From positions 1 to 54,120 of the forward strand of contig CANQTR010000003.1 in assembly GCA_947626805.1 (NCBI GenBank): 54,120 bases of DNA. Reading direction: 5' to 3'. How positions within the stretch are numbered: position 1 is the stretch's first letter; every line of letters begins with the position of its first letter. Source of the DNA: an uncultured Clostridia bacterium. GTDB lineage: Bacteria > Bacillota > Clostridia > Oscillospirales > CAG-382. Below, piece by piece: positions 3,829 through 48,715 of the stretch. The translations under genes were made by a program, and so were the position numbers. The notes under the pieces were generated by a model. The model worked only from the letters and a program-made list of their open reading frames with translations, searched no databases and had not been told where the DNA came from.

Positions 3829-4015
3829 CCCCCGCCATTCAGGGGACTTTGCGGGGTTTCACCCGCGCCGCCCTTCCGCCGCGCGTTGCCCCCATTCGCG
3901 GGGCTTCACCCCCCTTTCACGCGGCTTTGCGGGGTTTTGCCCCGCCCCCATTCAGGGGGTCTTTTTGAAAAAAGCCCCCCTGAAAACCCCCAAAAACTTT
4001 TCTGTTTGGTGTATA
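3829..4015 (+). repeat. Modular interspersed repeat, copy a (several A units, then B and C)
   Basis: Starts right after the stop codon. Core is TTGCGGGGTTTTGCCCCGCCCCCATTCAGGGGGTCTTTTTGAAAAAAGCCCCCCTGAAAACCCCCAAAAACTTTTCTGTTTGGTG; extra partial A/B units at 3829-3928. Confidence 0.85.
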
Positions 4016-4236
4016 AAATAAACGCCCCCCACATACGTCTTATTTATCCCCCCGCTTGCGCCCCCATTTGCACACCCTTTTTCCCCATCTCGCGCCCCCT
4101 CTCGCGTCCGCCCGCAATTTTTCCCCCCGCGCAAATTCCACACGGATTCCAAACGGACCACACGCGCATTCCGCATTCCCGGTGTATGCTGAAAATACCG
4201 ACGAAGGTCGGAATACGGAAAGGTGGTCAAAAAACC

Positions 4237-4977
4237 ATGAAAAAATCCAAATGGCTCTGTGGAATCGCCGTAACGGCGCTGGTGGTGCTGTCCATCGGGT
4301 GCTTCACCGCTTTTGCGGCGGGTGCCGACGCGGAACGGGACATCGTCGAGCTGATTTCCCGCTTTGCGGAGCACGAAGGACACACGGTCGACACGGCGAG
4401 CAACGGCAAGGAGGCCGTTCGCTTATGCGGCGAAAACGCCTACGACCTGATTATTCTCGACATCATGATGCCGGAAATGGACGGGTTCACCGCCTGCAAG
4501 GAGATACGCAAGCAAAAGCAAACGCCAATCATTCTGCTTTCCGCATTGGGCGCCGAGTACGACAAGCTGATGGGCTTCGAACTGGGCGTCGACGACTACG
4601 TGGTCAAGCCGTTTTCCCCGCGGGAACTGATGGCACGGGTCAAGGCAATCCTCGCAAGGCGGACCGACGGAAAACCGACGCGGGAAATCGCAATACAGGG
4701 GCTTCGCATCGACACGCTTTCCCACGAGGTTTTCGTGGACGGCGGGAAAACCGAACTGACCGCGAAGGAATACGAACTGCTCCTTTTCCTCGTGCGGAAC
4801 AAGGGCATCGCCCTGACGCGGGAGAAGATACTGAACGCCGTATGGGGCTACGACTACTACGGCGACGACCGCACGGTGGATTGGCAGATAAAGCTCCTAC
4901 GCGGCAAGCTGGGACCCTATCGGAAATGTATCGTCACGTTGCGCGGAACGGGGTATCGGTTCGATGAAAAAGCGTAA
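4237..4977 (+). CDS. OmpR/PhoB-family response regulator with atypical hydrophobic N-terminus
   Basis: Receiver motifs DLIILDIMMPEMDG and DDYVVKPF plus winged-helix LTAKEYELLLFL...RGTGYRF; ATG 4237 after GGAAAGGTGG; the upstream part of the 3886 ORF lies in repeat DNA. Confidence 0.8.
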   Translation: MKKSKWLCGIAVTALVVLSIGCFTAFAAGADAERDIVELISRFAEHEGHTVDTASNGKEAVRLCGENAYDLIILDIMMPEMDGFTACKEIRKQKQTPIILLSALGAEYDKLMGFELGVDDYVVKPFSPRELMARVKAILARRTDGKPTREIAIQGLRIDTLSHEVFVDGGKTELTAKEYELLLFLVRNKGIALTREKILNAVWGYDYYGDDRTVDWQIKLLRGKLGPYRKCIVTLRGTGYRFDEKA

Positions 4978-6448
4978 ATCCTTCGGCGTCAAGCTGTGGC
5001 TGTGGTTCCTTTTGTTTTCCGCCGCGATTTTCACCGCGCTGTGGCTGTTGCAGACGGTTTTCCTGCAAAATTTCTACGACGGAATGGCGATTCGAAACGT
5101 CGAACGCGCGGTCGACGAGCTGACGGCGCGCGCCGCGGAACCGGATTTCTTCGACAGAATCGACGAAACCGCTGTCTCCGGTTCGCTTCTCGTGTTCGTC
5201 ACGGACGAAAACGGCGACGTCCTGTACAGCGCCGACGAATATCGCCGCCTTTACGGGGACGCGGACGGCGCGGACAACCCGTATCACGCGGACGGCACGC
5301 TGAACTGGGAAAAAGGCGCGCTCCGCAACCTGCCCTACAGCTACCGAACGCTTGCGGAAAAGCTGGACGGCGCGGAAACCGACCGGGTCGGCTTTGTCAC
5401 GGAGGACGGAGCGGCATATGTGGCGGGCGTCCGGCTGAACGACGGCAGGACCCTGTCGGTCAGCCTCCCCCTCGGCGCGGTGGGCGGTACCGTCGGCATC
5501 TTGCGCGTGCAGTTGCTGTGGGTGTCGGCGCTGTCGTTGGCGCTCGGCTTTCTGCTCGCGTGGCGTATCTCCAAACGGTTCGAAAAACCCATCGCACAGC
5601 TCTCCCGTTCGGCAAAACAGGTGGCGGAAGGGAACTTCCGTCCGGCATTTCCGAAGGGTTTTTGTGCCGAGCTTGACGAACTGTCCGACACCCTGGAAGA
5701 AACGGCGTCGCGCCTGGAAAAGGCAGGGAACGCACAGCGGGAATTTCTCGCCAACATCTCCCACGACCTCCGCACGCCGCTCACCATGATAAAGGGCTAC
5801 GCGGAAATGGTTAAGGAGATTTCCTGGAGCGACAGGGAGGCGCGGGAAAAGGATTTGGACGTCATCATGCGGGAAGCGGATCGGCTGACGGCGTTGGTCA
5901 ACGAAATTCTGGAATTTTCCGCCATGCAGGCGGACGGTTCGGCAAAGGCATACGAAAAAATCGACCTCAGCCGTGCGATTCGGGACGTCGTCGAGCAGTT
6001 TGCGCCGTTTTGCGAGCAGAACGGCTATACCGTCGAATCCGAAATCGCGGACGGCGTCGCCGCGCCCGCCGACGAGTCTCAGATTAAGCGGGTGATTTAT
6101 AATTTTATCGACAACGCGGTTAATCACACGGACGAAAGCAAAAAAGTCCGGGTGTCGCTGACCGCGGCGGGCGGCTCTGCTCGTTTCGCGGTGACCGACT
6201 ACGGAAACGGAATCGCGGACGAGGACCTCCCCTACATCTGGGACCGCTACTATACCGCTCGCAACCGAAAGAACAAGGCTGTCGTTTCCGGGCTGGGTCT
6301 GTCCGTCGCCAGGGAAATTCTGACCGCCCACCGCGCGAAATTCGGCGTCGATTCCCGCGAGCACTGCACGTTTTGGTTCGAACTGCCCGCCCTTCCCCCT
6401 CCCCCCGTTCCGCCCACGCCGCCCGCTTCGCCCGCTCCGCCAACGTGA
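4964..6448 (+). CDS. Sensor histidine kinase (two TM segments, HisKA + HATPase_c)
   Basis: H-box SHDLRTPLT, N-box IDNAVNHT, G-boxes DYGNGI and GLGLSVA; overlaps the response regulator stop by 14 nt; Pro-rich C-terminal tail. Confidence 0.9.
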   Translation: MKKRKSFGVKLWLWFLLFSAAIFTALWLLQTVFLQNFYDGMAIRNVERAVDELTARAAEPDFFDRIDETAVSGSLLVFVTDENGDVLYSADEYRRLYGDADGADNPYHADGTLNWEKGALRNLPYSYRTLAEKLDGAETDRVGFVTEDGAAYVAGVRLNDGRTLSVSLPLGAVGGTVGILRVQLLWVSALSLALGFLLAWRISKRFEKPIAQLSRSAKQVAEGNFRPAFPKGFCAELDELSDTLEETASRLEKAGNAQREFLANISHDLRTPLTMIKGYAEMVKEISWSDREAREKDLDVIMREADRLTALVNEILEFSAMQADGSAKAYEKIDLSRAIRDVVEQFAPFCEQNGYTVESEIADGVAAPADESQIKRVIYNFIDNAVNHTDESKKVRVSLTAAGGSARFAVTDYGNGIADEDLPYIWDRYYTARNRKNKAVVSGLGLSVAREILTAHRAKFGVDSREHCTFWFELPALPPPPVPPTPPASPAPPT

Positions 6449-6476
6449 CCCTCTACGCGCACCCCCGCGCCAAGCA

Positions 6477-6591
6477 TTGCGGGGTTTTACCCCCTTCACG
6501 CGGCTTTGCGGGGCTTCGCCCCGCCCCCATTCAGGGGGTCTTTTTGAAAAAATCCCCCCTGAAAACCCCCAAAAACTTTTCAAATTGGGGT
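6477..6591 (+). repeat. Modular interspersed repeat, copy b (A-A-B-C)
   Basis: TTGCGGGGTTTTACCCCC..TTTGCGGGGCTTCGCCCCGCCCCCATTCAGGGGGTCTTTTTGAAAAAATCCCCCCTGAAAACCCCCAAAAACTTTTCAAATTGGGG. Confidence 0.9.
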
Positions 6592-6658
6592 ATAGAACAA
6601 GCGCCCCCGCTCGCGCCGCCCTGCCCGGCGGGGCGCGACAGGACAAAAAATCCCCCAC

Positions 6659-6689
6659 GCGACAAGTCCCACGGACTTGCCGCTTTTTT
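6659..6689 (+). terminator. Rho-independent terminator in the tail of repeat copy b
   Basis: GCGACAAGTCC-CAC-GGACTTGCCGC followed by TTTTTT; the same hairpin recurs at 7710. Confidence 0.75.
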
Positions 6690-6790
6690 ATCCCCAAATC
6701 TCCCCGTCGACCCGCCGTGTTCAGCCAACAAAAAAAACGCCGTGCACACGCCCGACGTTTTTCCTCCCCGCAAAACCCGCGCGCGCCGCG

Positions 6791-7287: not shown

Positions 7288-7560
7288 ATGGTCTGTTGCT
7301 TTTTCGGACACCGCACCGTAACGCAAGCGGTCGAACCGCGCCTACGAACGGCAATCCTACAACTTCTTGACGAAGCGGGCGGCGACCTGACCTGCTACGT
7401 CGGCAACCAAGGGCAGTTCGACGCGACGGTGCACCGGGGCGTTGCGGAGTGTTGTCAGCACATCGCCGCGTATTGCGGGGCTTCGCCCCGCCCCCCATTC
7501 AAGGAACTTTTTGAAAAAAGTTCCTTGAAAATCCTCAAAAACTTTTCAAATTGGGGTTAA
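7288..7560 (+). pseudogene. Truncated DUF1273/SLOG-like (YpsA-like) gene running into repeat copy c
   Basis: MVCCFFGHR...YVGNQGQFDATV matches the N-terminal third of DUF1273 proteins. After about 62 aa the frame reads repeat DNA (GASPRPPFKELFEKSSLKILKNFSNWG) to the stop. Confidence 0.55.
7473..7556 (+). repeat. Modular interspersed repeat, copy c (A-B-C)
   Basis: TTGCGGGGCTTCGCCCCGCCCCCCATTCAAGGAACTTTTTGAAAAAAGTTCCTTGAAAATCCTCAAAAACTTTTCAAATTGGGG with a perfect B stem. Confidence 0.9.
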
Positions 7561-7709
7561 AAATGCCGCGGCTTGCGCCGACCCCGCCGCTTTTACCGCC
7601 CCCACTTGCGTCCCCTCCGCTTGCACCGACCCCGTTCGCGCGACTATTTGCATCCCCGCTCGCGCCGCCCCGCCCGACGAGGCGCGGCAGGACACACAAA
7701 AAAACCCAC

Positions 7710-7745
7710 GCGACAAGTCCCACGGACTTGCCGCGCTATTTTTTT
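7710..7745 (+). terminator. Rho-independent terminator in the tail of repeat copy c
   Basis: Same GCGACAAGTCC-CAC-GGACTTGCCGC hairpin as at 6659, followed by GCTATTTTTTT. Confidence 0.65.
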
Positions 7746-7820
7746 CCGCCCATACAAAAAAGACACGCGGAAAAGCGCCGCATACGGGTACTGAACCTAT
7801 GGGAACCGGGCGGGCGCCCC

Positions 7821-7898
7821 CTCGCACCCCCGCACACAATATAACGTCCCTCGCACCCCCGCACACGGCATAACGTCCCCCCCACAACAGAACGTCCC
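7821..7898 (+). repeat. C-rich 29-nt tandem repeat (about 2.6 units)
   Basis: CTCGCACCCCCGCACACAATATAACGTCC / CTCGCACCCCCGCACACGGCATAACGTCC / partial third unit. Confidence 0.8.
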
Positions 7899-7905
7899 GC
7901 GCGCA

Positions 7906-9273: not shown

Positions 9274-9780
9274 TTACGCCCCGGCGGACCCCTTCGCCGC
9301 CTCCACGCGGTCGACGCGCCCGTTCGGACCGGTCGTCGTCACGTCGCCGCCGATGATGCGGTCCTTATAAATCAGGAGGGTCGCGTAGCGCGTTTCGCCG
9401 ACCTCGCCGTCCGCCCCGTCGGACGTGTCGGACAGCGCGTAGGTGTAGCGCTGAACGGTCTTGCCCTTGTACTTTTCGAGGTTGAGCCCCTGGGATTTCT
9501 GCAGCTGGTTGTAGGTTTCGTAGACGCTGTCGAACACTTCCGGGATGACGACTTCCCCCGCGTAGACCGGGTTCGGGTCGGGGGTGTGACCGAGCTCGCG
9601 CAAAAATTCGAGCTGCTCCTCGACCGTGTCGACGCCCTTGTAATCCAGCGCCGCGACCGCGGTCTCCCCGGACGGGTCGATGACCGGCAGCAGCGCGACA
9701 ATGCCCACGAGCACCGCCGCGGAAAACAGGATTGCGGTGAAAAACTTGATGCTGGACGCTTTGACCGTACATACAAACAT
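9274..9780 (-). CDS. Membrane-anchored hypothetical protein (DUF4830-like)
   Basis: N-terminal TM helix; IPEVFDSVYETYNQLQKSQGLNLEKYKGKTVQRYTY pattern recalled from DUF4830; GGAAAGGG 10 nt before the ATG at 9780. Confidence 0.55.
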   Translation of the reverse strand: MFVCTVKASSIKFFTAILFSAAVLVGIVALLPVIDPSGETAVAALDYKGVDTVEEQLEFLRELGHTPDPNPVYAGEVVIPEVFDSVYETYNQLQKSQGLNLEKYKGKTVQRYTYALSDTSDGADGEVGETRYATLLIYKDRIIGGDVTTTGPNGRVDRVEAAKGSAGA

Positions 9781-9883
9781 ACTTGACAAACCCTTTCCGA
9801 ACGTTTTCGTTGTATCGTTGTATGTATATGGCGCACATCCGCCGGTTTATGCGAAAAACCCGCGTTAGGGACGCCTTGCGGCG

Positions 9884-10035
9884 TTGCGGGGTTTCACCCC
9901 GCGCCCCATTCAAGGGACTTTTTGAAAAAAGTCCCTTGAAAATTCCCAAAAACTTTTCTGTTTGGGGGTAAACAAAAATGTGTCGGCTCGTCGGCGGATA
10001 TGCCGCAACGTCGACTTTTCCCCGTCGTTTGAGCA
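9884..10035 (+). repeat. Modular interspersed repeat, copy d (A-B-C plus tail type 1)
   Basis: TTGCGGGGTTTCACCCCGCGCCCCATTCAAGGGACTTTTTGAAAAAAGTCCCTTGAAAATTCCCAAAAACTTTTCTGTTTGGGGG; the tail ATGTGTCGGCTCGTCGGCGGATATGCCGCAACGTCG is shared, inverted, with copy f. Confidence 0.9.
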
Positions 10036-10084: not shown

Positions 10085-10295
10085 GGGCACCTGTCCGCCT
10101 ACGGGACAAATTTTGCTTGTATTTCCTTCGGGGCGTGACGGCAACGGCGGACTTTTTGGAAAGCAACGGGTGCGGGCGCATTTTAAACCCCTAAGCCGAA
10201 AAGTTTTTGAGGGATTTTTGGGAACTTTTTTAAAAGTTCCCGGACTTTTTTTCAAAAAGTCCCTTAAATGGGGCTTGGGACAAAGCCCCGGCGGC
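10085..10295 (-). repeat. Modular interspersed repeat, copy e (A, two B hairpins, C, tail type 2)
   Basis: Reverse complement reads ..CCCCATTTAAGGGACTTTTTGAAAAAAAGTCCGGGAACTTTTAAAAAAGTTCCCAAAAATCCCTCAAAAACTTTTCGGCTTAGGGG; the tail is shared with copy l and with 12730-12785. Confidence 0.85.
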
Positions 10296-10334: not shown

Positions 10335-10487
10335 ATTCAAACGCCGGAAAAAGCCGACGTTTCGGCATATTTGCCGACGAACCGACACATCTTATTTAAC
10401 CCCTAAGCCGAAAAGTTTTTGAGGATTTTTAAGGGACTTTTTTCAAAAAGTCCCTTAAATGGGGTTTGGGGCAAAGCCCCGGCGGCG
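10335..10487 (-). repeat. Modular interspersed repeat, copy f (A-B-C plus tail type 1)
   Basis: Perfect B palindrome TTAAGGGACTTTTTTCAAAAAGTCCCTTAA; the tail at 10335-10395 is the inverse of the copy d tail. Confidence 0.9.
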
Positions 10488-12500: not shown

Positions 12501-12529
12501 TGCAACGCCACGCCGCGACGCGCCGAGTC

Positions 12530-12595
12530 TTTCTTCAAGGAACTTTTTGAAAAAAGTTCCTTGAAAATCCTCAAAAACTTTTCTGTTTGGGGGTT
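12530..12595 (+). repeat. Modular interspersed repeat, copy g (B-C, no clear A)
   Basis: TTCAAGGAACTTTTTGAAAAAAGTTCCTTGAAAATCCTCAAAAACTTTTCTGTTTGGGGG. Confidence 0.85.
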
Positions 12596-13015
12596 TAAAA
12601 CCACGCGCCCCGCCCGTATCGCCCTCTCCGCGTCCCCGCCCCGCCCGAACCGCAATCAAAAAAATCGCCCGCTTTCCCCTTAAGGAAAACCGACGAACGC
12701 AATTTACGCCGACGGGTGCAAACGTAAATTCCCCCGCGGACGCAAAATTACAATAAAATAATGTCCCGTAGGCGGACATGTGCCGCTGGCTACGAACACA
12801 ACTGTGTTCGTAGCATAGGGACAACCACAAGAGAAAAGCGGCGATGGCGGCGTCAGAAGTGGCGCAAGCCGAGCCGGTTTTCGGAACGTGCCGACAGTGT
12901 CGGCACGTTTGAAAAGGGGTATTCGGGGGGGAAACACAGAGCTAGACGGTGCGACGACAAAGTCGCCAGCGACGCCGCCGTGATTGTGGTTCCCACCCGA
13001 AAGAGCGTAGCGATT

Positions 13016-13319: not shown

Positions 13320-13348
13320 TTGACAAAATCCGTCCGTTCGTGTATGAT
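13320..13348 (+). promoter_or_regulatory. Sigma-A type promoter for trmB
   Basis: TTGACA (13320-13325), 17-nt spacer, TATGAT (13343-13348). Confidence 0.6.
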
Positions 13349-39345: not shown

Positions 39346-39420
39346 TTTTATGCAAAACGCGTTCCCGCTTTGGCAAAAAAACACAGCGAAAGGCGATACG
39401 TCCTCGTTTGCCGCAAAAAT

Positions 39421-40440: not shown

Positions 40441-41120
40441 TCCCCGCTCCGGTAGCCGATGCCCCGCACGGTGCGTATCAGCGTCGGCTCTTGCGGGTCC
40501 CGCTCGATTTTCTCCCGCAATCGTTTGATGTAGACGGTCAGGGTGTTATCGTTGACGAAATCCCCGGAAACGTCCCAAATTTCCTCCAGCAGCCGCGCGC
40601 GGGTCAGCAGCTTGCCCCGGTTATTCGCGAACACGAGAAGAATGCGGTATTCCAGCGCGGAAAGCGGCACTTCCGCCCCGTCCCGCGTCACGACCCCCTT
40701 CTCCGTGTCCACCAGCAGGTCGCCGAACGGCAAAAACCCCTTCGCGCCGTCGTACCGCCGCAGGACGCTCCGAATCCGCGAGGCGAGTTCCCGCGGGCGG
40801 AACGGTTTCGAAACGTAATCGTCCGCCCCCATGTCCAGCCCCGCGACCACGCTGCCCTCGTCCCCCGACGCCGTCAGGAAAATGACCGGCAGCCCCCGTT
40901 TCTTCGCGTCGGCGCAAGCCCCGTAGCCGCTCCCGTCCGCGAGCGCGATGTCCGCGAGCAGCAGGTCGAACCCGCCGTCCCGCAAGCGCCGTTCCGCGTC
41001 CGCCTGCCCCGCGACGGCGCACACGTCGAACCCCTCCCCCGCGAGGAATTCCCGCAACGACCGGGCGATTCCCCCGTCGTCCTCCGCGAGCAGAATGCGT
41101 TTCCGCTGTCCTTCCGGCAT
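40437..41120 (-). CDS. OmpR-family response regulator (BceR-like)
   Basis: ILLAEDD, DLLLADIALADGSG, DDYVSKPF, winged helix SALEYRILLVF...VRGIGYR; ATGA overlap with the HK gene; upstream ORF extension rejected. Confidence 0.9.
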   Translation of the reverse strand: MPEGQRKRILLAEDDGGIARSLREFLAGEGFDVCAVAGQADAERRLRDGGFDLLLADIALADGSGYGACADAKKRGLPVIFLTASGDEGSVVAGLDMGADDYVSKPFRPRELASRIRSVLRRYDGAKGFLPFGDLLVDTEKGVVTRDGAEVPLSALEYRILLVFANNRGKLLTRARLLEEIWDVSGDFVNDNTLTVYIKRLREKIERDPQEPTLIRTVRGIGYRSGE

Positions 41121-41262
41121 ACCCTTTCCCGTCCTTTCGTCCTTTTTTTGTTCCGTTTCACCGCAAAATGCGAGTCCCGGGCAGAACGCGTTTCCGCCGT
41201 CCTTCCGGCATACCCGTTCCCGCCCTTTCGTCTTTTTTTCGATTGCACCGCAAAAAGCGGAC
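41091..41262 (-). repeat. 91-nt tandem duplication of the response regulator 5' end (RBS plus first ~10 codons)
   Basis: 41091-41175 versus 41182-41262 are near-identical; the distal copy gives uORF MPEGRRKRVLPGTRILR* (41158-41211). Confidence 0.85.
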
Positions 41263-41294
41263 CCCAAAAGGAAGTTTCTCCCTCGGGGGCCCGC
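41251..41294 (-). terminator. Rho-independent terminator after the surface-protein gene
   Basis: Minus strand GCGGGCCCCC..GGGGTCCGC followed by TTTTT (large loop, one mismatch). Confidence 0.5.
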
Positions 41295-41358
41295 TCTCAC
41301 AGACCGTATGCGACCGGCGAACCGGGCTGACCGCCCCTTGCCGGGAAGGTTTGCGATT

Positions 41359-42372
41359 TTACTTCTTCTTCCGGACGACGACCACGACCACGACGATTGC
41401 GACGACCGCAACGACCGCGACGATGATGCCGACGATTGCGCCGGTACCCAGTCCGCCTCCGGAGGACACTTCACTGCTCGCCGCGCCGGACGCGACGGAG
41501 GACGCCGCACTGGACGCCGTGCTGCTCGCCGTGCTGGACGTAGCGGAGGACGCCGCGGAGGACGCTTCGCTGCTCGCCGCGCTGCTCGCCGCACTGGACG
41601 TAGACGCCGCGCTGGACGCTTCGCTGCTCGCCGCGGAGGACGTCGCGCTGGAGGTAGAAGCCGCACTGGACGTCGTGCTGATTTCCACCGGCGCCGGCTT
41701 ATTCTTGCCGAGTTCCACCTTTTCGTCGTCCACGATACCCATCGTGAAAAGGGTCAGTTCGGAACCGACGACCGAACCCTTCAGGCTCAGGTCGAGCTGG
41801 GTGAAGTGGTGCAGTTTGTCGTCATAAACCTTCTTGGTGTCGGAGCTTACATAGGTACCGAAATCCCAAACGACATAGTTGACGCTGCCGTCGGCGTACT
41901 GCTTGGTCGAACCGACGTCGGTCGCGCCGTCAAACTGTTTTCTGAATTTCACGTAATCCGCGCTGTACATGGATTCCATGTAGAGGTCGGCGACCGCGGG
42001 AGCGACCTTATCCTTACGGGTGTAGTGGAACACCATGTGGTCAATCTTGATGGAGCCGGCGGTGCCGAAGTCCAGCGCGAAGAAAGCGGGTTCGCCCACG
42101 TTGACATTCCCGCCAATCTGCATGGTGCCGCCCTTTTCAAAATCGACGACCAGCGTCGGGTTGCTGCCCGTGACCTTGATGACCAGCGAGCCGTTGTCAT
42201 CGCTACGAACCTCGCAATCGGTCGCCTTGATGACGTCTTTGTCCAATTCCGCGTCGGGCATCAAATCGACGACCATATCGTCGCCGAGGATGGATTCCGC
42301 GCCGACCGTGACAAGCGCGAACGGCAGAGCCAGCATGACGAGAACAAGCATGGCGCAAAGCAGTTTTTTCAT
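41359..42372 (-). CDS. Cell-surface protein: signal peptide, unknown ~210-aa domain, Ser/Ala-rich linker, C-terminal TM anchor
   Basis: MKKLLCAMLVLVMLALPFA signal; SSAAS-type low complexity; IVGIIVAVVAVVAIVVVVVVVRKKK anchor; AAGGAGA RBS. Confidence 0.8.
   Translation of the reverse strand: MKKLLCAMLVLVMLALPFALVTVGAESILGDDMVVDLMPDAELDKDVIKATDCEVRSDDNGSLVIKVTGSNPTLVVDFEKGGTMQIGGNVNVGEPAFFALDFGTAGSIKIDHMVFHYTRKDKVAPAVADLYMESMYSADYVKFRKQFDGATDVGSTKQYADGSVNYVVWDFGTYVSSDTKKVYDDKLHHFTQLDLSLKGSVVGSELTLFTMGIVDDEKVELGKNKPAPVEISTTSSAASTSSATSSAASSEASSAASTSSAASSAASSEASSAASSATSSTASSTASSAASSVASGAASSEVSSGGGLGTGAIVGIIVAVVAVVAIVVVVVVVRKKK
41452..41685 (-). repeat. Degenerate tandem repeats encoding the Ser/Ala-rich linker
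   Basis: Reiterated GCTCGCCGC/GCTGGACG units visible on the plus strand. Confidence 0.7.
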
Positions 42373-42530
42373 ACGTACATTCTCTCCTTGTTTTCAAAAA
42401 AATTTGGGGGAATCGATGGGGTAAACATCTGTGTAAACACATTATACAGCAAACGAACGGATTTTGCAAGGGCTTTCCGCGAAAAAATCGAATTTTTTCC
42501 GTTTCCTACAAAAATCGCCGCGAAAACCCG

Positions 42531-43574
42531 TCAATCCGGCTCCTCCGCAAGGACGATTCGCCGCCCCTCGCGAATGGCGCGGACCGCCAGCACGACCGTG
42601 CGGAACGCCTCGAACACGTCGTCGATGGGGACCATGCCCTCGCCGCCGTTCTCAATCATATCGACGAGGTCGCGGAACTGGGCGTACATATCCTTATAAA
42701 TCGACGGGTTCTCGATGATGCGGTCCGGCTTTTCCGCGTCGCCGTAATAGATGCGGATAAGGTCGCTGTCCCGCACGCCGTCGGTGCGGTTTGCCGCCAT
42801 CGTCAGGGAAATATGCCCCTTCGTGCCGATGAAATCCTTGTCGTTATTGGACGAAACGTTGCGGCTCCAGCCGACCTCGTAGTAGCCCCGGCACCCGTTC
42901 GCAAGCTCCATCGTCATGATTTGGTAGTTGTCGATGGGGGAATCCGCGTCGAGTTTGGCGGAAACGCCCCCGACGGAAACGATGGGCGACCCCGCGAACC
43001 AGCGCATCACGTCCGCGTAATGCACGCCGCAATCCACCAGCGGCGGGCAATCCTGCATGAGCCGCAAGAACCGGTCCCACGGGTGTTCCGGCTCGCCGGC
43101 GCGGTGGCTCTGGTTCATGCGCGCCATGCGCAATTCCCCGATTTCCCCGTCGTCGATGAGTTCCTTGATTTTGCGGTAGGAGCGGTTGTAGCGCAAAATA
43201 TGCGAAACGGCGACCTTGCTGTCGGACGACTTCACCAGCCGCACGAACTCCCGCGCGCCCGCCAGATCCGTCGCGACCGGCTTTTCGCAGATGACGTGTT
43301 TCCCGTGCGCGACGCAATCCCGTAAAATGGGCAGGTGCGTGTCCGTATAGGTGGCGATGATGACGATATCCACCGACGGGTCCGCAAGGTACGGGCGGTA
43401 ATCCGTCCCGAACGACGACGCCCCGTACCGGCGGGCGAACGCGCTCGCGCGGTCCGCGTCGCTGTCGACCGTCGCGACGACGCGCACTTCCTCCTTCCCG
43501 TACAGGTCCTCGATATGCTGTCTACCGATATGACCGCACCCGATTAGCAGGATTCCATAGGTTTTCTTCATCAT
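42531..43574 (-). CDS. Gfo/Idh/MocA-family oxidoreductase
   Basis: N-terminal Rossmann YGILLIGCGHIGRQH, EKP motif ICEKPVA; ATG at 43574 7 nt after AAAGGAA. Confidence 0.85.
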   Translation of the reverse strand: MMKKTYGILLIGCGHIGRQHIEDLYGKEEVRVVATVDSDADRASAFARRYGASSFGTDYRPYLADPSVDIVIIATYTDTHLPILRDCVAHGKHVICEKPVATDLAGAREFVRLVKSSDSKVAVSHILRYNRSYRKIKELIDDGEIGELRMARMNQSHRAGEPEHPWDRFLRLMQDCPPLVDCGVHYADVMRWFAGSPIVSVGGVSAKLDADSPIDNYQIMTMELANGCRGYYEVGWSRNVSSNNDKDFIGTKGHISLTMAANRTDGVRDSDLIRIYYGDAEKPDRIIENPSIYKDMYAQFRDLVDMIENGGEGMVPIDDVFEAFRTVVLAVRAIREGRRIVLAEEPD

Positions 43575-43663
43575 GTCCACGTTCCTTTTGCTTCGGCGAA
43601 ACGCATTTCACCGAACGGCGCCTTTCGCATACGGCGCGCAATCTCTTTCGCAAAAATGCCCCG

Positions 43664-44251
43664 CTATTCCGCGCCGACGCCCGTCAGAAGTGCGGACGCT
43701 TGCTCGGCAAAGCAGGCGGCGAGCTCCGTGACCTCCCCGAGCGACAGTCCCGACGGGGACTTCGACCATTCGAGGTAGAATTGCGCCGTGCCGGCAAGCA
43801 TCCCAATCACGGCGAGCCGCAAAGCGGCGGTACCCGACAGGTTCCCGTCGCGGTAAAAACCGAGCAGACGGTCCACGGCGCACTCGCCGACCGTGCGGGT
43901 GAAATACTCCCAGGTGCCCTTCAGGCAAAGCGCCCGAAAAAAATCCGGGTTCGCGGCAATGCGCTCCTGGACCTTCGCCAGAAGCGCGGCGGGCGAAAAC
44001 GCGCCGTCCGCGTTCCGGGACGAATCGATAATATCCAACGTCGCCAACCGCAGATTCCGCTGCAGTTCGGCGGCGACGTCCTTAATGCAGGTATAATGGA
44101 GGTAGAAAGTTTTTCGGTTAATATCCGCGCAAGTGGTCAACTCGGTAATGGTAATTTCCTCCGGCTCCTTGGTGTCAAGCAGTTGCAGCAGCGCAACGTT
44201 GATGGCTCGCTTGGTCTTTACGATTCGTCTGTCGATTTTCGTTCTTGGCAT
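43664..44251 (-). CDS. TetR-family transcriptional regulator (DhaS-like C-terminal domain)
   Basis: RIVKTKRAINVALLQLL...ITITELTTCADINRKTFYLHY; AAAGGAGG RBS. Confidence 0.85.
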   Translation of the reverse strand: MPRTKIDRRIVKTKRAINVALLQLLDTKEPEEITITELTTCADINRKTFYLHYTCIKDVAAELQRNLRLATLDIIDSSRNADGAFSPAALLAKVQERIAANPDFFRALCLKGTWEYFTRTVGECAVDRLLGFYRDGNLSGTAALRLAVIGMLAGTAQFYLEWSKSPSGLSLGEVTELAACFAEQASALLTGVGAE

Positions 44252-44461
44252 CTTTTTTCCTCCTTTGTTCTGACGATTCGGACGGCGCGGCGGGGAGCGG
44301 GGGCGTTCCCCGACCCTCGAACCGAAGCCGGTACCATTATAACACAGATTCCGGCAATTTGTTACCCAATCTTCAGAAAAATTTTGCGCCTGTTTTTGGC
44401 TTTTTTGACGAAAATTCAGCGTTTTTCGGCGGAATAAAGGGGAACGCGCGTTCGCCCGCCC

Positions 44462-44635
44462 TCATTCGATGGGCAGGACGCTGACCGTGAACCACGCGTC
44501 CGGGTTTTCCACGGACGTTTCCGTCAGCCAATCGGAACGGTCGTCCGACGCGTCCCCGCCGTCGTCCCCGCAGCCGCAAACGCCGGCGAGCAGCAGCCCG
44601 CAAAGCAGCACCGCGAGCAAGCGTTTCCCGTTCAT
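44462..44635 (-). CDS. Small putative lipoprotein (57 aa)
   Basis: MNGKRLLAVLLCGLLLAGVCGC signal/lipobox-like; its ATG overlaps the TGA of the upstream AKR gene (ATGA). Confidence 0.55.
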   Translation of the reverse strand: MNGKRLLAVLLCGLLLAGVCGCGDDGGDASDDRSDWLTETSVENPDAWFTVSVLPIE

Positions 44636-45714
44636 GGCGCGAACCGTTCCGCGACCGCCTGCAATTCGGCGCGGATCGGCAGCTCTTGCGGGCAGACCGC
44701 CTCGCACGCTCCGCAGCCGATACAGTCCGCGGGCGTACCGCCCTTGCCGGCGAGGGACGCGTAATCCGCCGCCGTCGCGTCGCCGCGGTTGTACAGCGCG
44801 AAGTAGTCCGGAATCGGAATCGACGCCGGACAGCCCGTCGTGCAGTAGGAACACCCCGTGCAGGGCACCGCGATACCCGAACGCACCCAGTCCGCGACCT
44901 TCCAAAGCAGTTTCCGCTCCGCCTCTCCGAGCGGCTGAAACGCCTTCATGTACGAAAGGTTGTCCCGCATTTGCGCCGAACTGCTCATGCCGGACAGCAC
45001 GACCCGCACCCCCGGCAGCCCCGCCGCGAACCGAATCGCCCAGGACGCCTCCGACCAATCCGGGTGCGCCTGCCGCAACAGCCGCGCCGCGCCGGCGGGC
45101 AGGTTCGCGAGCGTGCCGCCCTTGACCGGCTCCATGACCACGATAGGCTTGCCGTGCCGGCGGGCGACCTCACAGCACAGCCGCGACTGCACGGAATCGC
45201 TCTCCCAGTCGAGGTAATTGACCTGCAGCTGCACGAAATCCATCTCCGGGTGCTCGGTCAGCACCTTGTCGAGGAACGCGGCGTCGTCGTGGAAGGAAAA
45301 CCCGATTTCCTTCACCAGCCCTTGCGCCTTCTTTTCCCGAATCCAGGAAAAGCAGTCGAGTTCGCGGTAGATTTTTTCGTGCGCGGCGCGCATATCGTGC
45401 AGCAGGTAGTAATCGAAGTACCCCGCCCCGGTCTTTCGCAACTGCTCGTTGAAAATGCCGTCCCGGTCGTCCTTGCTTTTGAGGTACGCGGCGTGCAGTT
45501 TGTCGGCGAGCGTGAAGCTGTCCCGCGGGTGACGGTCGACCAGCGCCGCCTTCGTCGCGTCCTCGCTTCGGAAATTGCAGTACATCCACGCCGTGTCGAA
45601 ATAGGTGAACCCGTTCGCGAGGAATTCGTCGACCATGCCTTTCATCTGCTCGAGGTCAATCTCTCCGTTCCCCGCCGTCGGCAGGCGCATGAGCCCGAAA
45701 CCCAGTTTTTTCAT
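44632..45714 (-). CDS. Aldo/keto reductase with C-terminal 4Fe-4S ferredoxin-type domain
   Basis: LGFGLMRLP, FDTAWMY, AKR blocks; CTGCSYCTTGCP and CIGCGACEAVCP cysteine clusters. Confidence 0.85.
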   Translation of the reverse strand: MKKLGFGLMRLPTAGNGEIDLEQMKGMVDEFLANGFTYFDTAWMYCNFRSEDATKAALVDRHPRDSFTLADKLHAAYLKSKDDRDGIFNEQLRKTGAGYFDYYLLHDMRAAHEKIYRELDCFSWIREKKAQGLVKEIGFSFHDDAAFLDKVLTEHPEMDFVQLQVNYLDWESDSVQSRLCCEVARRHGKPIVVMEPVKGGTLANLPAGAARLLRQAHPDWSEASWAIRFAAGLPGVRVVLSGMSSSAQMRDNLSYMKAFQPLGEAERKLLWKVADWVRSGIAVPCTGCSYCTTGCPASIPIPDYFALYNRGDATAADYASLAGKGGTPADCIGCGACEAVCPQELPIRAELQAVAERFAP

Positions 45715-45744
45715 GTGAAACCCTTCCTTATTTATTATATTCCC

Positions 45745-46446
45745 TCACAGTCCGCCGTTCACGTCCAGAACCGCCCCCGTGATGTAGGACGCGTCCTCCG
45801 ACGCGAGGAACACCAGCGCCGACGCGACCTCCTCCGGCGTGCCGAACCGTTCGAGCGGAATCGAATCCGCCAATTCCTCCGCCTCCGCGACGGTCAGCCG
45901 GTCGTTCATGCGCGTCCGAATGACGCCGGGGCAGACGCAATTGACCCGCACCCCCGCCGGACCGACCTCCTTCGCGAGCGCCTTCGTGAACCCGATCAGC
46001 CCCGCTTTCGCCGCCGAATAATCCACTTCGCAACTCCCGCCGCTCTCCCCGAACACCGAGGACACGTTCAAAATGCACCCGCTCTGCCGCGAAAGCATGC
46101 CCTTCACCAGCAGCCGCGCGAGCGTCACCGGCGCGAGCAGATTCACCTCGTAAAGCGCCCGCGCCTGCTCCTCCGGCACCCAGTCGAACAGACCGAACAA
46201 ATCCACGGCGGCGTTGTTGACCAGCACGTCCGTTTCCGGGAACGCTCCGGCGAGCGCGCGCACTTGCGCCGGGTCGCGCAGGTCCGCCCGGTACACGGTC
46301 GACCCCGGCAGTTCCCGCGAAAGGCGTTCCGCCTTTTCGAATCCGGAAAAGCAGTGCAGGACCACACGATACCCGGCGCGGGCGAACGCGCGGGCGGTCG
46401 CCTCCCCGATTCCGCCGGACGCCCCGGTGATAAGCGCCGTCCTCAC
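45745..46446 (-). CDS. SDR-family oxidoreductase (FabG-like)
   Basis: ALITGASGGIG, NNAA, YSAAK; GTG start overlapping the hslO stop (GTGA). Confidence 0.8.
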   Translation of the reverse strand: MRTALITGASGGIGEATARAFARAGYRVVLHCFSGFEKAERLSRELPGSTVYRADLRDPAQVRALAGAFPETDVLVNNAAVDLFGLFDWVPEEQARALYEVNLLAPVTLARLLVKGMLSRQSGCILNVSSVFGESGGSCEVDYSAAKAGLIGFTKALAKEVGPAGVRVNCVCPGVIRTRMNDRLTVAEAEELADSIPLERFGTPEEVASALVFLASEDASYITGAVLDVNGGL

Positions 46447-47327
46447 GGCGTTTTCCGCTCCGCTTCGGCGAGCAGTTTCCGCAAATCGTCCTTCGAATAG
46501 CGGTAATCCGTCCCGCAAAACTCGCACGAGAGCACGGTCTCCTCCGGGGCGTCGAGCAGTTCCCGCAATTGCCCGCCCCCCAGCGAAAGCAGGGCGCGGT
46601 CGGTCCGTTCCCGCGAGCAGTCGCAGCGGTATTCGCAGGCAATTTCGTCGAACAGGTCGTACGGAATCCCGTCGAGGAACCCCGCGAGGAGCTGTTCGGG
46701 CGTCCCGCCGTCCAGAATCGCCGTGACGGGCGGCAGTTTCGCGGCGTTCGCCTCAAGCCGGTCGGTCACGTCCGGGTCCGCGTAGGGCAAAAGCTGTATC
46801 AGCGCGCCGCCGGCGGCTTTGCAGGAGCCGTCCGTGTCCACCAGCACCCCGAGCGCGCAAAGGGTCGGCACCTGCTCGCTCGTCGCGAAATAGTAGGCGA
46901 GGTCTTGCGCAATCTCGCCGGTCTGGATTTCCGCGACGCCCTGAAACGGCTGCCCGCCGACGGAACGCGTCACGGTCAACTGCCCCTTGCCGACGCAGCG
47001 CGCGACGTCGAGTTTGCCGTCCGATTCCCGCAAGGGGTAATCGCAGGACGGGTCGCCGATAAGCCCCCGCACGTTGCCCTTGTAATCGGCGGACGCGAGC
47101 AGGGTCCCCCCGCCGCCGTCCCCCTGAAAGCGCAAGGTCAGCAGGTCCTCCTCCTCGCCGAGCAGACTGCCCATCAGGGACGCCCCCAAAAGCACCCGCC
47201 CGAGCGCGGCGGTCGCCGTCGGGGAGGTGTGATGTATCCCGATTGCCCGGTCGACGATGCTCCGCCCGTCTATCACGACCGCGCGCGCCGAACCGTCCCG
47301 CGTCAATGCGCGAAGTATCCTTGCCAT
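46443..47327 (-). CDS. hslO: Hsp33-family redox-regulated chaperone
   Basis: N-terminal Hsp33 blocks and C-terminal zinc centre CDCS...CEFCG; GGGAGG RBS before the ATG at 47327. Confidence 0.9.
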   Translation of the reverse strand: MARILRALTRDGSARAVVIDGRSIVDRAIGIHHTSPTATAALGRVLLGASLMGSLLGEEEDLLTLRFQGDGGGGTLLASADYKGNVRGLIGDPSCDYPLRESDGKLDVARCVGKGQLTVTRSVGGQPFQGVAEIQTGEIAQDLAYYFATSEQVPTLCALGVLVDTDGSCKAAGGALIQLLPYADPDVTDRLEANAAKLPPVTAILDGGTPEQLLAGFLDGIPYDLFDEIACEYRCDCSRERTDRALLSLGGGQLRELLDAPEETVLSCEFCGTDYRYSKDDLRKLLAEAERKTP

Positions 47328-47343
47328 CTTCGTTTTCCTCCCG

Positions 47344-48633
47344 TCAGACCTTCGTCGCGTCCATCTGCCCGCCGGCAAGTTTCACCGAGAACCGCTCGCC
47401 GCTCGCGAGCGCCTCCGGGCGGCGTACCACCCCGCCCGCCGCGTCGAACACCACGGCGTACCCCCGCTCCAGCACGGCGAGGGGGTTGAGCGAGCCCAGT
47501 TTCTCCGAAAGCACCCGCAATGTTTGCGCCCGGCGCTCCAGCGCGAGGTCGACGGCGCGGTCCAACCGCTCCCCCACCTGCAATTTTTGCGCCCAGCGCT
47601 CCAGCGCGAGGTCGACGGCGCGGTCCAGACGTTCCCCCGCCCGCGCGACCATCATGCGCTTGTCGTCGAGGTAGGCTTGCGGCGACGTGAGGACCGGACG
47701 GCTCGCGACGGCGTTCAGCCGGTGGGCGAGCATTTGCAGGCGTGCGTCGACGAGGTTGTTCATGTGCGCGCGCAAATTGCCGAACTTGCGAAGCTGCTCC
47801 CTCGCGTCCGGGACCGCCAATTCCGCGGCGGCGGACGGCGTCGGCGCCCTTTGGTCGGCGACAAAATCGCAAATGGTGTAATCGATTTCGTGTCCGACGG
47901 CGGAAATGACGGGCGTGCGGCAGGCGTAGATTTCCCGCGCAAGCGCCTCGTCGTTGAAACACCACAGGTCCTCCATCGAACCGCCGCCGCGCCCGATGAT
48001 GATGACGTCGCACTTCCCGCCGTCGAGCAGACGGAGCGCCCGAATCAGTTCGGCGGGCGCCGACGGACCCTGCACGGTCGCCGGGGCGAGCAGGAGGTTC
48101 GCCGCCGGGAACCGCCGGTGGACGACGTTGCGGATATCCTGCAAAGCGGCGCCGTTTTCCGCCGTAATCACCCCGACGCGGAACGGGAACTTCGGCAGGG
48201 GCTTCTTGTGGGCGGGGTCGAACAACCCCTCCGCGCCCAGCCGTTTCTTGAGCTGTTCAAACGCCACCGCGAGCGACCCGACGCCGTCCGGCTCCATACT
48301 GCCCGCGTAGAAACGGTACTGCCCGTCCCGCACGTACACCGAAACCCGCCCGACGCACAGCACCTTCATGCCGTTCTCCGGCTGAAACGCGAGCTTGCGC
48401 GTCACGTCGAACATCGTCGCGGGCAGGCTGGATTTCTCGTCCTTGAGCGTGAAAAAAATCATGTCCTTTGCGGGGTACGTCCGCATATTGGAAATTTCCC
48501 CCCGCACGGCGACCTTCGTGAGCAGCAAATCGCCCGCGAGGTATTCGCGAATATGCTCGTTGAGCTGTTCGACCGTCAGCGGTTGTTGAATTTCCGTCGT
48601 TTGTTCGACCGTCATCTCCTGCAAAATAGCCAC
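47344..48633 (-). CDS. xseA: Exodeoxyribonuclease VII large subunit
   Basis: OB-fold N-terminus VRGEISNMRTYPAKDMIFFTLKDE, GVITAENGAALQD, IIIGRGGGSMEDLW; contains an in-frame 21-aa duplication. Confidence 0.9.
   Translation of the reverse strand: MAILQEMTVEQTTEIQQPLTVEQLNEHIREYLAGDLLLTKVAVRGEISNMRTYPAKDMIFFTLKDEKSSLPATMFDVTRKLAFQPENGMKVLCVGRVSVYVRDGQYRFYAGSMEPDGVGSLAVAFEQLKKRLGAEGLFDPAHKKPLPKFPFRVGVITAENGAALQDIRNVVHRRFPAANLLLAPATVQGPSAPAELIRALRLLDGGKCDVIIIGRGGGSMEDLWCFNDEALAREIYACRTPVISAVGHEIDYTICDFVADQRAPTPSAAAELAVPDAREQLRKFGNLRAHMNNLVDARLQMLAHRLNAVASRPVLTSPQAYLDDKRMMVARAGERLDRAVDLALERWAQKLQVGERLDRAVDLALERRAQTLRVLSEKLGSLNPLAVLERGYAVVFDAAGGVVRRPEALASGERFSVKLAGGQMDATKV
47522..47647 (-). repeat. 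63-nt in-frame tandem duplication inside xseA
   Basis: TTGCGCCCgGCGCTCCAGCGCGAGGTCGACGGCGCGGTCCA.. occurs twice (period 63), encoding ERLDRAVDLALERxAQxL twice. Confidence 0.85.
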
Positions 48634-48639
48634 GCTCCT

Positions 48640-48715
48640 CTTTTTCTGTTCTGAAAAACGCTTTTTTGAAAAAACGCTTTGGAAAGCCCGTCGAAAATCC
48701 CTCGAAAAGTCTCGG
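48640..48715 (+). repeat. Degenerate relative of the modular repeat (copy o)
   Basis: CTGAAAAACGCTTTTTTGAAAAAACGCTTTGGAAAGCCCGTCGAAAATCCCTCGAAAAGTCTC keeps the TTTTTGAAAAAA centre and GAAAATCC..AAAAGT tail but has lost the stem. Confidence 0.4.

Follow-up and report, generated by a model that had tools for sequence, protein, structure and literature searches.

BOX elements, known from pneumococci and other streptococci, have the organisation boxA-boxB(n)-boxC, in which boxA pairs with boxC and the terminal inverted repeats resemble those of ISSpn2 (PMC3049150). The pneumococcal SPRITE has one 18-bp duplex with a U-rich tract after it (PMC3049150), and REPINs are mobilised by RAYTs (PMC3337134). 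We describe here an apparently undescribed family within this familiar REP/BIME/BOX/MITE class, found in a 54-kb chromosomal stretch (the window) of an uncultured gut Clostridia bacterium, in which the copies lie among housekeeping genes. Like BOX, the repeat is short, non-coding, modular and intergenic, forms predicted stem-loops, often lies in UTRs that are here predicted to be transcribed, and has neither its own transposase nor a clear target-site duplication. It differs from BOX in having no sequence similarity to it and in its host class, Clostridia instead of streptococci.

The E. coli BIMEs (REP/PU mosaics) share further features with this repeat, namely a palindromic unit set in mosaics with short repeated motifs (here T1, T2, T3 and M), alternating orientation, convergent pairs, GC-rich hairpins and an extragenic location, often in the 3' UTR (predicted here). 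In contrast to the REP of BIMEs, which measures 35-40 nt and carries a conserved 5' GTAG that this repeat does not have, the core described here is ~90 nt long and combines two different hairpins with invariant A/T tracts; the host phylum is also different. Neither the window nor the 8-20 kb loci examined showed a transposase, a RAYT or an IS element with matching ends, and the flanking RAYT gene that defines REPINs was not observed. Classical MITEs (Correia elements, RUP, ERIC) are likewise small, high-copy and intergenic, with structured transcripts (predicted here) and the potential to alter neighbouring gene expression. Unlike those elements, the repeat has an asymmetric core with GC-rich ends and yielded no definable terminal inverted repeats or target-site duplications, the flanks at 89-94% relatedness being too diverged for clean empty sites.

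A covariance model scoring every position recovered 14 copies of the ~90-base hairpin-forming repeat in the window (50-106 bits, E <= 3e-8, filters off). An nhmmer profile recovered exactly the same 14, with the coordinates and strands listed in a first-pass annotation of this DNA. That annotation had counted about 15 copies; the fifteenth, at 48640-48715, is not significant under the covariance model (11.4 bits, E 2.8 on the + strand; 18.5 bits, E 0.09 on the - strand). The remaining matches of profile and model are reverse-strand echoes of palindrome B. Motif counts in the window agree: the B palindrome occurs at nine sites with up to three mismatches (0 expected), and the C motif CCCAAAAACTTTTC at 14 sites with up to two mismatches (0.65 expected). 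All 14 copies are intergenic, outside GC3-supported and Pfam-supported genes, and no transposase domain was present among the window ORFs scanned, several of which have no Pfam match; both observations bear out the earlier reading. No Rfam family is matched by the repeat. Copies h and i, copy m, and copies j, k, l and m recur in the independent assemblies L014, L015, L102 and L104, which come from different samples, and family members are present in at least eight further MAGs. An assembly or chimera artefact limited to this contig, for which we see practically no probability, is thereby ruled out, and the picture of a dense, modular, interspersed intergenic family holds.

The core is built from a GC-rich hairpin A, a CCCCATTC linker, palindrome B, and the invariant RAAAAYCYYCAAAAACTTTTC tract followed by TTGGGG. 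Hairpin B is a 14-bp palindrome with an invariant CTTTTTGAAAAAAG top. In an alignment of 29 copies out of nine assemblies, hairpin B is 96.3% paired, and three of its positions show 9-11 double changes each and not one single change; of the eight combinations possible for the three B-stem states, seven occur. Pairing in hairpin A is 81.6%, with covariation at all seven pairs. None of 500 shuffles gave pairing as high as the observed values for A and B, and slid controls were 40-66% paired. The fold z-scores of the copies range from -1.6 to -6.0. Hairpins A and B are therefore well supported as structures, and the paired substitutions claimed earlier for both stems are real. The proposed third hairpin, C, fared less well: it is weak, with 66% of cells paired and T.G as the commonest pair at one position, and an alternative long-range helix is equally poor (65.5%). 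In contrast to boxA, module A is a self-contained GC hairpin, and end-to-end pairing is unsupported. Some of the stems quoted earlier as perfect (copies a, b, h and k) contain mismatches. Mismatches of G.T and A.C type occur equally often (5 vs 5 in B, 6 vs 10 in A) and give no indication of an RNA strand. Selection on the fold had been proposed from these stems. The structure-preserving covariation stands, but selection is not established by it, since the same pattern would result from conversion between copies or from template-switch correction of quasi-palindromes.

The core is one module of a larger mosaic, which the first-pass annotation had not recorded. Copy a (3829-4017, +, 90.1 bits) begins directly 3' of the stop codon of ORF 3094-3828 and comprises a truncated linker with a left B arm, extra A-type units, and a full A-B-C core at 3926-4017. 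Copy b (6477-6595, +, 86.7 bits), which starts 28 nt past a histidine-kinase stop codon, has an extra A unit and a core at 6505-6595. The extra A-type units, noted previously, are seen in the sequence of both copies, which are 91% identical over 119 nt (repeat family D7) and have stem defects in common. Copy b is followed by the C-rich tail T3 (6600-6690, +), which ends in an intrinsic terminator with a stem at 6663-6679 and a T run. The top-scoring copy c (7473-7561, +, 106.3 bits, fold z -5.98) is a canonical A-B-C core with a T3 tail at 7654-7745 (+) that includes a bidirectional terminator at 7708-7736. Tail T1, with a small hairpin, follows the core of copy d (9884-9972, +, 103.2 bits) at 9973-10035 (+), and also follows the core of copy f (10396-10487, -, 96.4 bits) at 10335-10395 (-), where a terminator-like hairpin lies at 10366-10353; T1 also occurs in L096, a relative of the window, and its reading frame is not conserved. 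Copy f is situated 45 nt 3' of an ABC-F stop codon, in that gene's own orientation. Tail T2 (repeat families D9 and D14) follows both copy e (10184-10295, -, 50 bits) at 10085-10183 (-) and the core of copy l (28678-28765, -, 93.6 bits) at 28615-28677 (-), and is common to the T2/M region of L096. T1, T2 and T3 are thus each common to two copies. A fragment of module M (12825-12883, -) shows 95% identity to part of this module in L096, and module M is also found in L001, L005 and L009.

Copy g (12509-12598, +, 87 bits) contains B and C without a canonical A hairpin and adjoins the -35 box of a conserved ABC-F promoter (12500-12472, - strand). Copy h (21320-21412, +, 71.2 bits), which lies 19 nt past the stop codon of ORF 19774-21300, has an A hairpin of a different kind, an 11-bp GC stem, and converges with copy i (21507-21593, -, 96.9 bits), located directly 3' of the ddl intrinsic terminator (21629-21603). 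The 3' end of copy j (25446-25549, +, 53.1 bits) extends into the AAGGAG Shine-Dalgarno of a CAP/dockerin gene starting at 25557. Copy k (28322-28405, +, 70.2 bits) is placed 5 nt past the RNase J stop codon and converges with copy l; a terminator-like hairpin downstream of it at ~28430-28455 was found on the + strand by eye, the scan having flagged only the - strand. The first base of copy m (30172-30280, +, 50.9 bits) is the next after the stop codon of ORF 29689-30171, and a terminator-like hairpin with a T run near it at ~30290-30326, found by eye, is common to the convergent secG. Copy n (39266-39347, +, 84.1 bits) is antisense to both flanking genes; its A and B are intact and its 3' end is degraded. 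The two B hairpins previously ascribed to copies e, j and m are confirmed, the second one arising from the same 21-nt internal duplication. The middle hairpin module is therefore variable in copy number (one or two B) in the manner proposed by analogy with BOX, although B is duplicated once at most here and BOX has long boxB arrays.

The window contains three convergent doublets, d/e (with d as its left end), h/i and k/l; L011 contains another. Convergent doublets, retention of the hairpin while the stem sequence varies, lineage specificity, and singlets that resemble decayed or partial units are also features of REPINs. Unlike in REPINs, the core-to-core spacers vary (94 nt for h-i, 211 nt for d-e and 272 nt for k-l) and hold unrelated modules, and the doublet arms are no more conserved than singlets.

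In 7-9 copies an ORF end in the same orientation is found no more than 60 nt from the A end, vs one copy in antisense. A position between stop codon and terminator, absent from the earlier account, is seen in several copies; copy b is followed by a terminator-like site found by scan, and copies k and m by the terminator-like hairpins seen by eye. The enrichment near CDS 3' ends is shared with SPRITE, and as there a hairpin could act in termination, but the hairpins of this repeat are not followed by U runs in sense orientation. For copies c, d, l and n, all neighbouring genes are antisense or divergent, and the flanking genes show no functional theme. The scan gave no promoter-like site within or just 5' of any core. 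Canonical sigma-70 promoters and intrinsic terminators lie outside the copies and are conserved in relatives without copies; the host thus requires the copies for neither function.

Comparison with relatives, ranked by ABC-F identity (94%, L096; 89%; 73%), reveals gain and loss of copies between species. The spacer from ABC-F to DUF4830 measures 743 nt in the window, where it holds copies f, e and d, vs 432 nt with one core in the 94% relative, and is reduced to 108 and 75 nt, both without copies, in the 89% and 73% relatives, respectively. Where the window has copy g, the 89% relative carries an ordinary terminator. L096 contains two copies in 17.6 kb vs six in the syntenic part of the window, and L097, L099 and L105 contain none in 11.6, 22 and 13.8 kb, respectively. 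The ortholog of copy d in L096 (12199-12292) differs from it at 18 of 94 positions; eight of these are in stems and make up four fully compensated pairs, with zero uncompensated changes, and the replacement A variant in this pair is common among other copies.

On balance, we consider it probable that the family is a non-autonomous selfish repeat of the BOX/BIME/REPIN kind, its hairpins kept by selection or copy conversion and its copies predicted to be transcribed, in many cases, in 3' UTRs. Within an uncultured gut Clostridia lineage (Oscillospiraceae-type), copies would have both spread and been lost in intergenic DNA. We infer that a trans-acting enzyme encoded outside the window makes or moves the copies. 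This putative enzyme may recognise the folded hairpins together with the invariant A/T tracts; by analogy, candidates are an HUH/Y1 transposase (RAYT or IS200/IS605-type) and an IS-element transposase. Recombination or conversion among copies would homogenise them and so keep the stems paired. The many copies in sense between stop codon and terminator are predicted to yield structured 3' UTR RNA, which as a side effect, possibly co-opted, could buffer mRNA decay or read-through. The near-identical L014, L015, L102 and L104 show no presence/absence difference that would attest to current mobility.

Several of these observations would also fit a host-selected cis-acting RNA element in 3' UTRs (5' UTRs for copies g and j), with repetitiveness secondary, whose hairpins are bound by an RNA-binding protein, dampen read-through, or protect against 3'-5' or RNase J-type decay. 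The stems covary without uncompensated changes, the copies fold stably, co-oriented stop codons are favoured over antisense ones, and copies b, k and m precede terminator-like hairpins. Loop and tract sequences are moreover invariant over genomes of 43-63% GC, an A/T-tract conservation that might equally reflect host function and is partly imposed by the search pattern that found those MAGs. Against this stand the four copies antisense or divergent to all their neighbours, the ordinary terminators at the same, copy-less sites of the 73-89% relatives, the balanced mismatch types with no RNA-strand signature, and the lack of a theme among flanking genes, and we regard such an element as rather unlikely.

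BIMEs are bound by gyrase and IHF, and on that model B and the phased A/T tracts could be sites in double-stranded DNA at which a dimeric regulator, a nucleoid-associated protein or a bending protein binds. The palindrome of B is nearly perfect, and its 1-2 nt centre leaves too little room for an RNA loop; a direct reading of the sequence shows A and T tracts every ~10-12 bp, and mismatch types are strand-symmetric. A sequence-specific dimer, however, would not tolerate coordinated changes at 3-4 stem positions in both half-sites; the neighbouring genes show no regulon logic, relatives do without the copies at syntenic sites, and no candidate protein was identified, which makes a binding array improbable. 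The same-strand terminator-like hairpins 20-170 nt past cores (T3 for b and c, T1 for d and f) would suit small-RNA genes, with each core and its terminator-ended T1 or T3 tail as its own transcription unit. As the scan gave no promoter-like sites for the cores, the tails are interchangeable or missing, the T1 frame is unconserved and Rfam gives no match, this appears very improbable.

The family is restricted in lineage. Zero copies were found in ~0.9 Mb of Clostridia contigs encoding other ABC-F relatives, and zero in viral contigs and a plasmid collection; a phage collection gave a single weak match. MAGs from the gut of rabbit, sheep and human, with 43-63% GC, contain the same B-C core.

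The first-pass annotation listed about 15 copies of the repeat, and 14 of them (a–n) are recovered by motif, nhmmer and covariance searches. Palindrome B, AAGGGACTTTTTNAAAAAAGTCCCTT, occurs with up to three mismatches at 9 distinct sites, compared with none expected from 100 shuffles, and the C motif, CCCAAAAACTTTTC, occurs with up to two mismatches at 14 sites against 0.65 expected, exactly at the 14 places first annotated. An nhmmer profile built from the copies recovers the identical 14 in the window and no others. R1, the covariance model of the core, applied to every position of both strands, finds 14 copies with scores of 50–106 bits (E <= 3e-8), and its other matches in the window are reverse-strand echoes of palindrome B. 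The fifteenth, a supposed degenerate copy at 48640-48715 in the nusB-xseA spacer, is unsupported, with R1 scores of 11.4 bits (E 2.8) on the plus strand and 18.5 bits (E 0.09) on the minus strand. An assembly artefact confined to the contig is ruled out by the recurrence of copies in four independent assemblies: h+i, m, and j+k+l+m are found again in L014, L015, L102 and L104, which represent near-identical strains from different samples.

The copies are situated in ordinary chromosome of 61% GC at a density of one per 3.9 kb, and the repeat-matching segments make up ~3.7 kb, or 7% of the window. All 14 lie outside GC3- and Pfam-supported genes, in agreement with the intergenic placement originally described, with the caveat that the true start of ORF 4056-4967, 3′ of copy a, is uncertain. 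The Pfam and Rfam content comprises a tRNA, ABC-F, DUF4830, DUF378, TrmB, two Mur ligases, DapF, Ddl, RNase J, SecG, PBP5, RibF, FtsX/ABC, two two-component systems, Hsp33, XseA, NusB, iPGM and ScpA/ScpB, and close homologues are labelled as Oscillospiraceae or Clostridia MAGs. A Pfam screen of the scanned ORFs of the 54-kb window, several of which have no Pfam match, agrees with the reported lack of a transposase: no Y1_Tnp, other transposase or recombinase domain was detected. The repeat matches no Rfam family, a point on which the first-pass annotation had reserved judgement. Only the tRNA at 1-70 (51.8 bits), a gene truncated by the left edge of the window, passes the Rfam threshold, and permissive E-values add only chance miRNA-like hairpin matches in the window. 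A full-text literature search did not find a description of the family. We also note that the copies are unevenly distributed: all 14 fall within 3.8-39.3 kb, and the last 15 kb (39400-54120) contains none, though it has several intergenic spacers.

When the 29 copies with one B hairpin (11 of them in the window, 18 in other MAGs) are aligned, the core consensus is [N]GGGGC-nTT-GCCCC[N] - nnCCCCATTC - AAGGAACTTTTT-G-AAAAAAGTTCCTT - GAAAATCCTCAAAAACTTTTC - nGTTTGGGG. Hairpin B reaches 14 pairs (TTCAAGG.../...CCTTGAA) and is 96.3% paired across the 29 copies. Three of its positions switch only pairwise, C-G/T-A (16:10), A-T/G-C (20:9) and A-T/G-C (17:11), without any one-sided change, and of the eight combinations that these states allow, seven are present. 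Hairpin A is 81.6% paired, with covariation at 7/7 of its pairs. None of 500 shuffles reaches the observed values, and slid controls are only 40–66% paired. The proposal of three hairpins with compensatory changes holds for A and B, which covary, but a third helix has not been established. Its local candidate, hairpin C, is 66% paired, with T.G as the most frequent pair at one position, and the alternative, linker CCCC against the 3′ GGGG, reaches 65.5%. The hairpin A motif, GGGGYNTNRCCCC, has 11 sites in the window against 0.18 expected, all 11 being extragenic and on the element strand, and it does not occur in the window apart from the element.

Comparison with relatives was based on a series of ABC-F homologues whose loci are largely syntenic with the window: L096 (94% at the amino acid level), L097 together with L098 (89%), and L099–L101 (73%). 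The spacer between the ABC-F and DUF4830 genes measures 743 nt in the window, where it holds f, e and d, 432 nt in L096, where it holds one core and T1/M/T2 (T1 and T2 being repeated tails and M a separate longer module), 108 nt in L097 and 75 nt in L099, the latter two with zero copies. Upstream of the ABC-F promoter, the window has copy g, L096 an M module, L097 a plain terminator and L099 no copy. The counts are graded accordingly, with 14 copies in 54 kb of the window (6 in the part syntenic with L096), 2 in 17.6 kb of L096, 0 in 11.6 kb of L097 and 0 in 22 kb of L099. Hence presence/absence polymorphism, which had been proposed as a check, is observed between species: f, e and g are missing in L096, and d-g are all missing in L097 and L099. 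The near-identical assemblies carry the same copies, with no presence/absence difference seen at the strain level. Among RNase J relatives, L105 (87%) has zero copies in 13.8 kb and L107 (84%) has two. Metagenome contigs coding for ABC-F relatives at greater distance, ~0.9 Mb in all, contain no copies. When species-representative genomes were scanned for a degenerate B-C pattern, the core turned up in rabbit, sheep and human gut MAGs at loci of 43-63% GC; an exact match to that pattern was demanded, so sequence conservation within it is a product of the scan itself. From the copy counts and spacers of the relatives and the MAG scan, it follows that the family is lineage-restricted and patchy, and has been gained or lost on a speciation time-scale. 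At the copy c site, synteny ends just past the ABC-gene terminator.

Copy d and the L096 copy at 12199-12292 occupy a common site and share the rare ATTCCC variant. The two differ at 18 of 94 positions, 8 of which are in stems and constitute four fully compensated pairs, with no uncompensated change. The A variant of the L096 orthologue is common among other copies, so intercopy conversion accounts for these differences no less well than compensatory mutations arising step by step. The L096 copy near ddl has the derived features of h, yet the position and orientation of i; an h-type copy at the i site points to recombination between copies.

The core is embedded in a mosaic of further modules. 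One B is present in 11 window copies and two in e, j and m, in which, as first described, the second B-type hairpin is present and arises from a common 21-nt internal duplication. Additional A-type units were likewise found in both a and b, where they had been reported. These two copies are 91% identical over 119 nt and have stem defects in common. At 3829-6595 they form direct repeats bracketing ORF 4056-4967, which has no Pfam match, and a histidine-kinase gene, an arrangement that hints at duplication in place or at joint movement as one composite unit. Tail T1 follows d and f, T2 follows e and l, and T3, with a bidirectional terminator at its end, follows b and c. Module M (~150-250 nt), a repeated intergenic module, occurs three times in the L096 locus (2150-2320, 9725-9922 and 11953-12204) and as fragments in the window (12825-12883) and in three other MAG loci, L001 (6621-6681), L005 (4765-4864) and L009 (3550-3602), beside a core in some places and solitary in others. 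M looks non-coding because its reading frames are broken between copies, and a candidate peptide in M was rejected when its frame proved broken in a second copy. A small peptide in T1 (MCRLVGG...) was also discarded, its frame differing between d and f and its start codon missing in L096. Convergent doublets are formed by d(+)/e(-), h(+)/i(-) and k(+)/l(-), with intercore gaps of 211 nt (d-e), 94 nt (h-i) and 272 nt (k-l) that differ in content; the d/e doublet has the order core, T1, spacer, T2 (reverse complement), core. The plus strand carries strongly C-rich, low-complexity tracts (4020-4150 and 7562-7700; e.g. GCGCCCCCGC...) after several cores, a, b, c and g, and partly repeated G-rich units lie on the opposite strand at ~7640-7900. 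A further small repeated terminator-like unit is the hairpin TGTCCGCCTACGGGACA followed by a T-rich run, intergenic at 10092-10108 and 12761-12779, near e and g. In L004, a human-gut MAG contig, positions 500-1160 hold three tandem ~220-nt units, each a core followed by a G-rich tract, with a C stem of CCCTC/GAGGG; the core family is thus also able to form tandem arrays.

Three less probable rival readings take the family as a host 3′ UTR element, a DNA-binding array or a set of sRNA genes. Relative to transcription signals, the A end lies within 60 nt of the end of a co-oriented ORF in 7-9 of 32 copies versus one antisense case. A scanned terminator-like site is located downstream of b, and terminator-like hairpins, read by eye in the sequence, downstream of k and m, so that sense transcription as 3′ UTR is predicted for these three. 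Copies c, d, l and n run antisense to their neighbours or diverge from them. Copy g adjoins a -35 box, and copy j extends into a Shine-Dalgarno sequence. Single-copy folds have z-scores of -1.6 to -6.0, and G.T and A.C mismatches are equally frequent in hairpins A and B, which gives no indication that the constraint acts on one RNA strand. The C tract resembles a CodY box only in low-GC members such as L003 and L010, and not in the window copies.

Other roles were tried and rejected. A promoter cassette, in which the TTGGGG-TATAAA ends of several copies would resemble -10 boxes, finds no support in a consensus scan of any core, and is also contradicted by the true promoters, which lie outside the copies and are conserved in copy-less relatives. 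TTGACA-17-TAnnnT promoters are found at 12500-12472 (-), 13320-13348 (+), 26320-26348 (+) and 28887-28915 (+), and promoter and 5′ UTR sequence beside copies is conserved in all four genomes (window, L096, L097 and L099). Intrinsic termination as a general role fails as well, since neither hairpin A nor hairpin B has a U run behind it on the sense strand. Intrinsic terminators are present outside the copies, e.g. at 21629-21603 (-) and, in conserved form, downstream of the ABC gene. A terminator-like appearance within the core is limited to the antisense strand of two-B copies, where a hairpin is followed by a T run at 25494-25516 (j), 30219-30247 (m) and 10217-10244 (e); j, m and e could therefore terminate transcription entering from the 3′ side. 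For a phage or plasmid origin, viral contigs and plasmids gave nothing, apart from one 37-nt match of 22 bits in a phage collection.

The family was compared with BOX, REPIN and MITE elements through their defining features, the class definitions being drawn from PMC3049150 and PMC3337134. The A-B(n)-C order with a variable number of middle modules is BOX-like in architecture only. This is in contrast to the complementary terminal modules that form the main stem of BOX, as A here self-folds (81.6%) and pairing of the ends is 65.5%. By eye, the invariant tracts of the core appear unlike anything known in BOX. Like REP, an imperfect GC-rich palindrome of 20-40 nt, hairpin A is repeated extragenically, but in the window it is found only within the larger core. 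The mosaic with T1, T2, T3 and M, the alternating orientation and the convergent d/e, h/i and k/l pairs are features of BIMEs. Unlike REPINs, whose doublet spacing is characteristic, the doublets here are spaced by 94, 211 and 272 nt and are not better conserved, the best-scoring copies, c and d, including a singlet; nor was the RAYT (HUH-Y1) gene that defines REPINs, single-copy and flanked by family members, seen among the scanned window ORFs. MITE-like presence/absence at orthologous sites is seen between species, whereas terminal inverted repeats are absent, the ends 5′ T(T)G(C/T)GGGG and 3′ TTTGGGG(T) being direct. No recurrent duplicated flank is visible, in a comparison that offers no clean empty site, as relatives at 89-94% are too diverged in these spacers and near-identical assemblies have the same copies. 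The family thus fails the structural definitions of BOX, REPIN and classical MITE, and functionally most resembles BOX (variable middle module, UTRs) and BIMEs (mosaics of palindromic units). It is apparently an uncatalogued, real member of a well-known bacterial repeat class, notable for its density, clean stem covariation and graded relatives, and within known kinds.

The data establish the family, two of its hairpins, its mosaicism, its lineage restriction and its turnover from species to species, whereas how copies move, by what enzyme and with what effect, if any, on RNA is inference. The family is best read as a selfish repeat, modular and non-autonomous, of the REP/BIME/BOX/REPIN kind. 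A trans-acting enzyme encoded outside the window would recognise the hairpins and the invariant A/T tracts, and the stems may stay paired via selection on recognition, intercopy conversion or template switching, or both. Transcribed copies probably affect mRNA 3′ ends incidentally, and these effects may have been co-opted. We consider it improbable, but worth stating, that the core is more than selfish and works in cis with a dedicated and perhaps domesticated protein that recognises hairpins and is conserved across Oscillospiraceae-type Clostridia, the pair forming a genome-wide system that acts on 3′ UTRs or local DNA topology, with stem integrity actively restored by conversion or template switching instead of slow compensatory mutation. 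Such a partner would explain the invariant A/T tracts at 43-63% GC, and also the four compensated and zero uncompensated stem changes in the orthologous copy.

Proteobacteria, streptococci and Neisseria have well-studied small interspersed repeats. Uncultured high-GC gut Clostridia dominate many animal gut metagenomes, and we found no description of such a repeat in them. Through the repeat, intergenic regions become up to ten-fold longer than in sister species, and housekeeping genes, RNase J, ABC-F and ddl among them, acquire predicted structured RNA in their UTRs, both 3′ and 5′. The copies are substrates for recombination and inversion, and will fragment short-read MAG assemblies. The family is also a clean natural case in which to ask whether selection, conversion or template switching keeps palindromes paired, and relatives at graded distances, some having a copy at a given site and others lacking it, are already at hand. 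R1 could serve as a lineage marker and as a way to find the mobilising enzyme.

Several minor features were noted. In L107 (JAZOKP01), the two members, at 2283-2334 and 3279-3350, flank a DnaB_2 (DnaD-like) gene that adjoins an IstB_IS21/Bac_DnaA-domain (DnaI-like) gene. The sole notable difference between the window and L104 over 5.3 kb is a 36-nt in-frame indel in the RNase J gene (window 28040-28075, L104 3051). ORF 41359-42372 (-), whose sole Pfam match is a weak one to Podoplanin, contains at 41453-41656 a 12-nt periodic repeat of at least 10 units that encodes a low-complexity Ala/Ser/Val-rich stretch. The ScpB gene (52577-53344) has three tandem 75-nt repeats at 53100-53324, in its C-terminal part.
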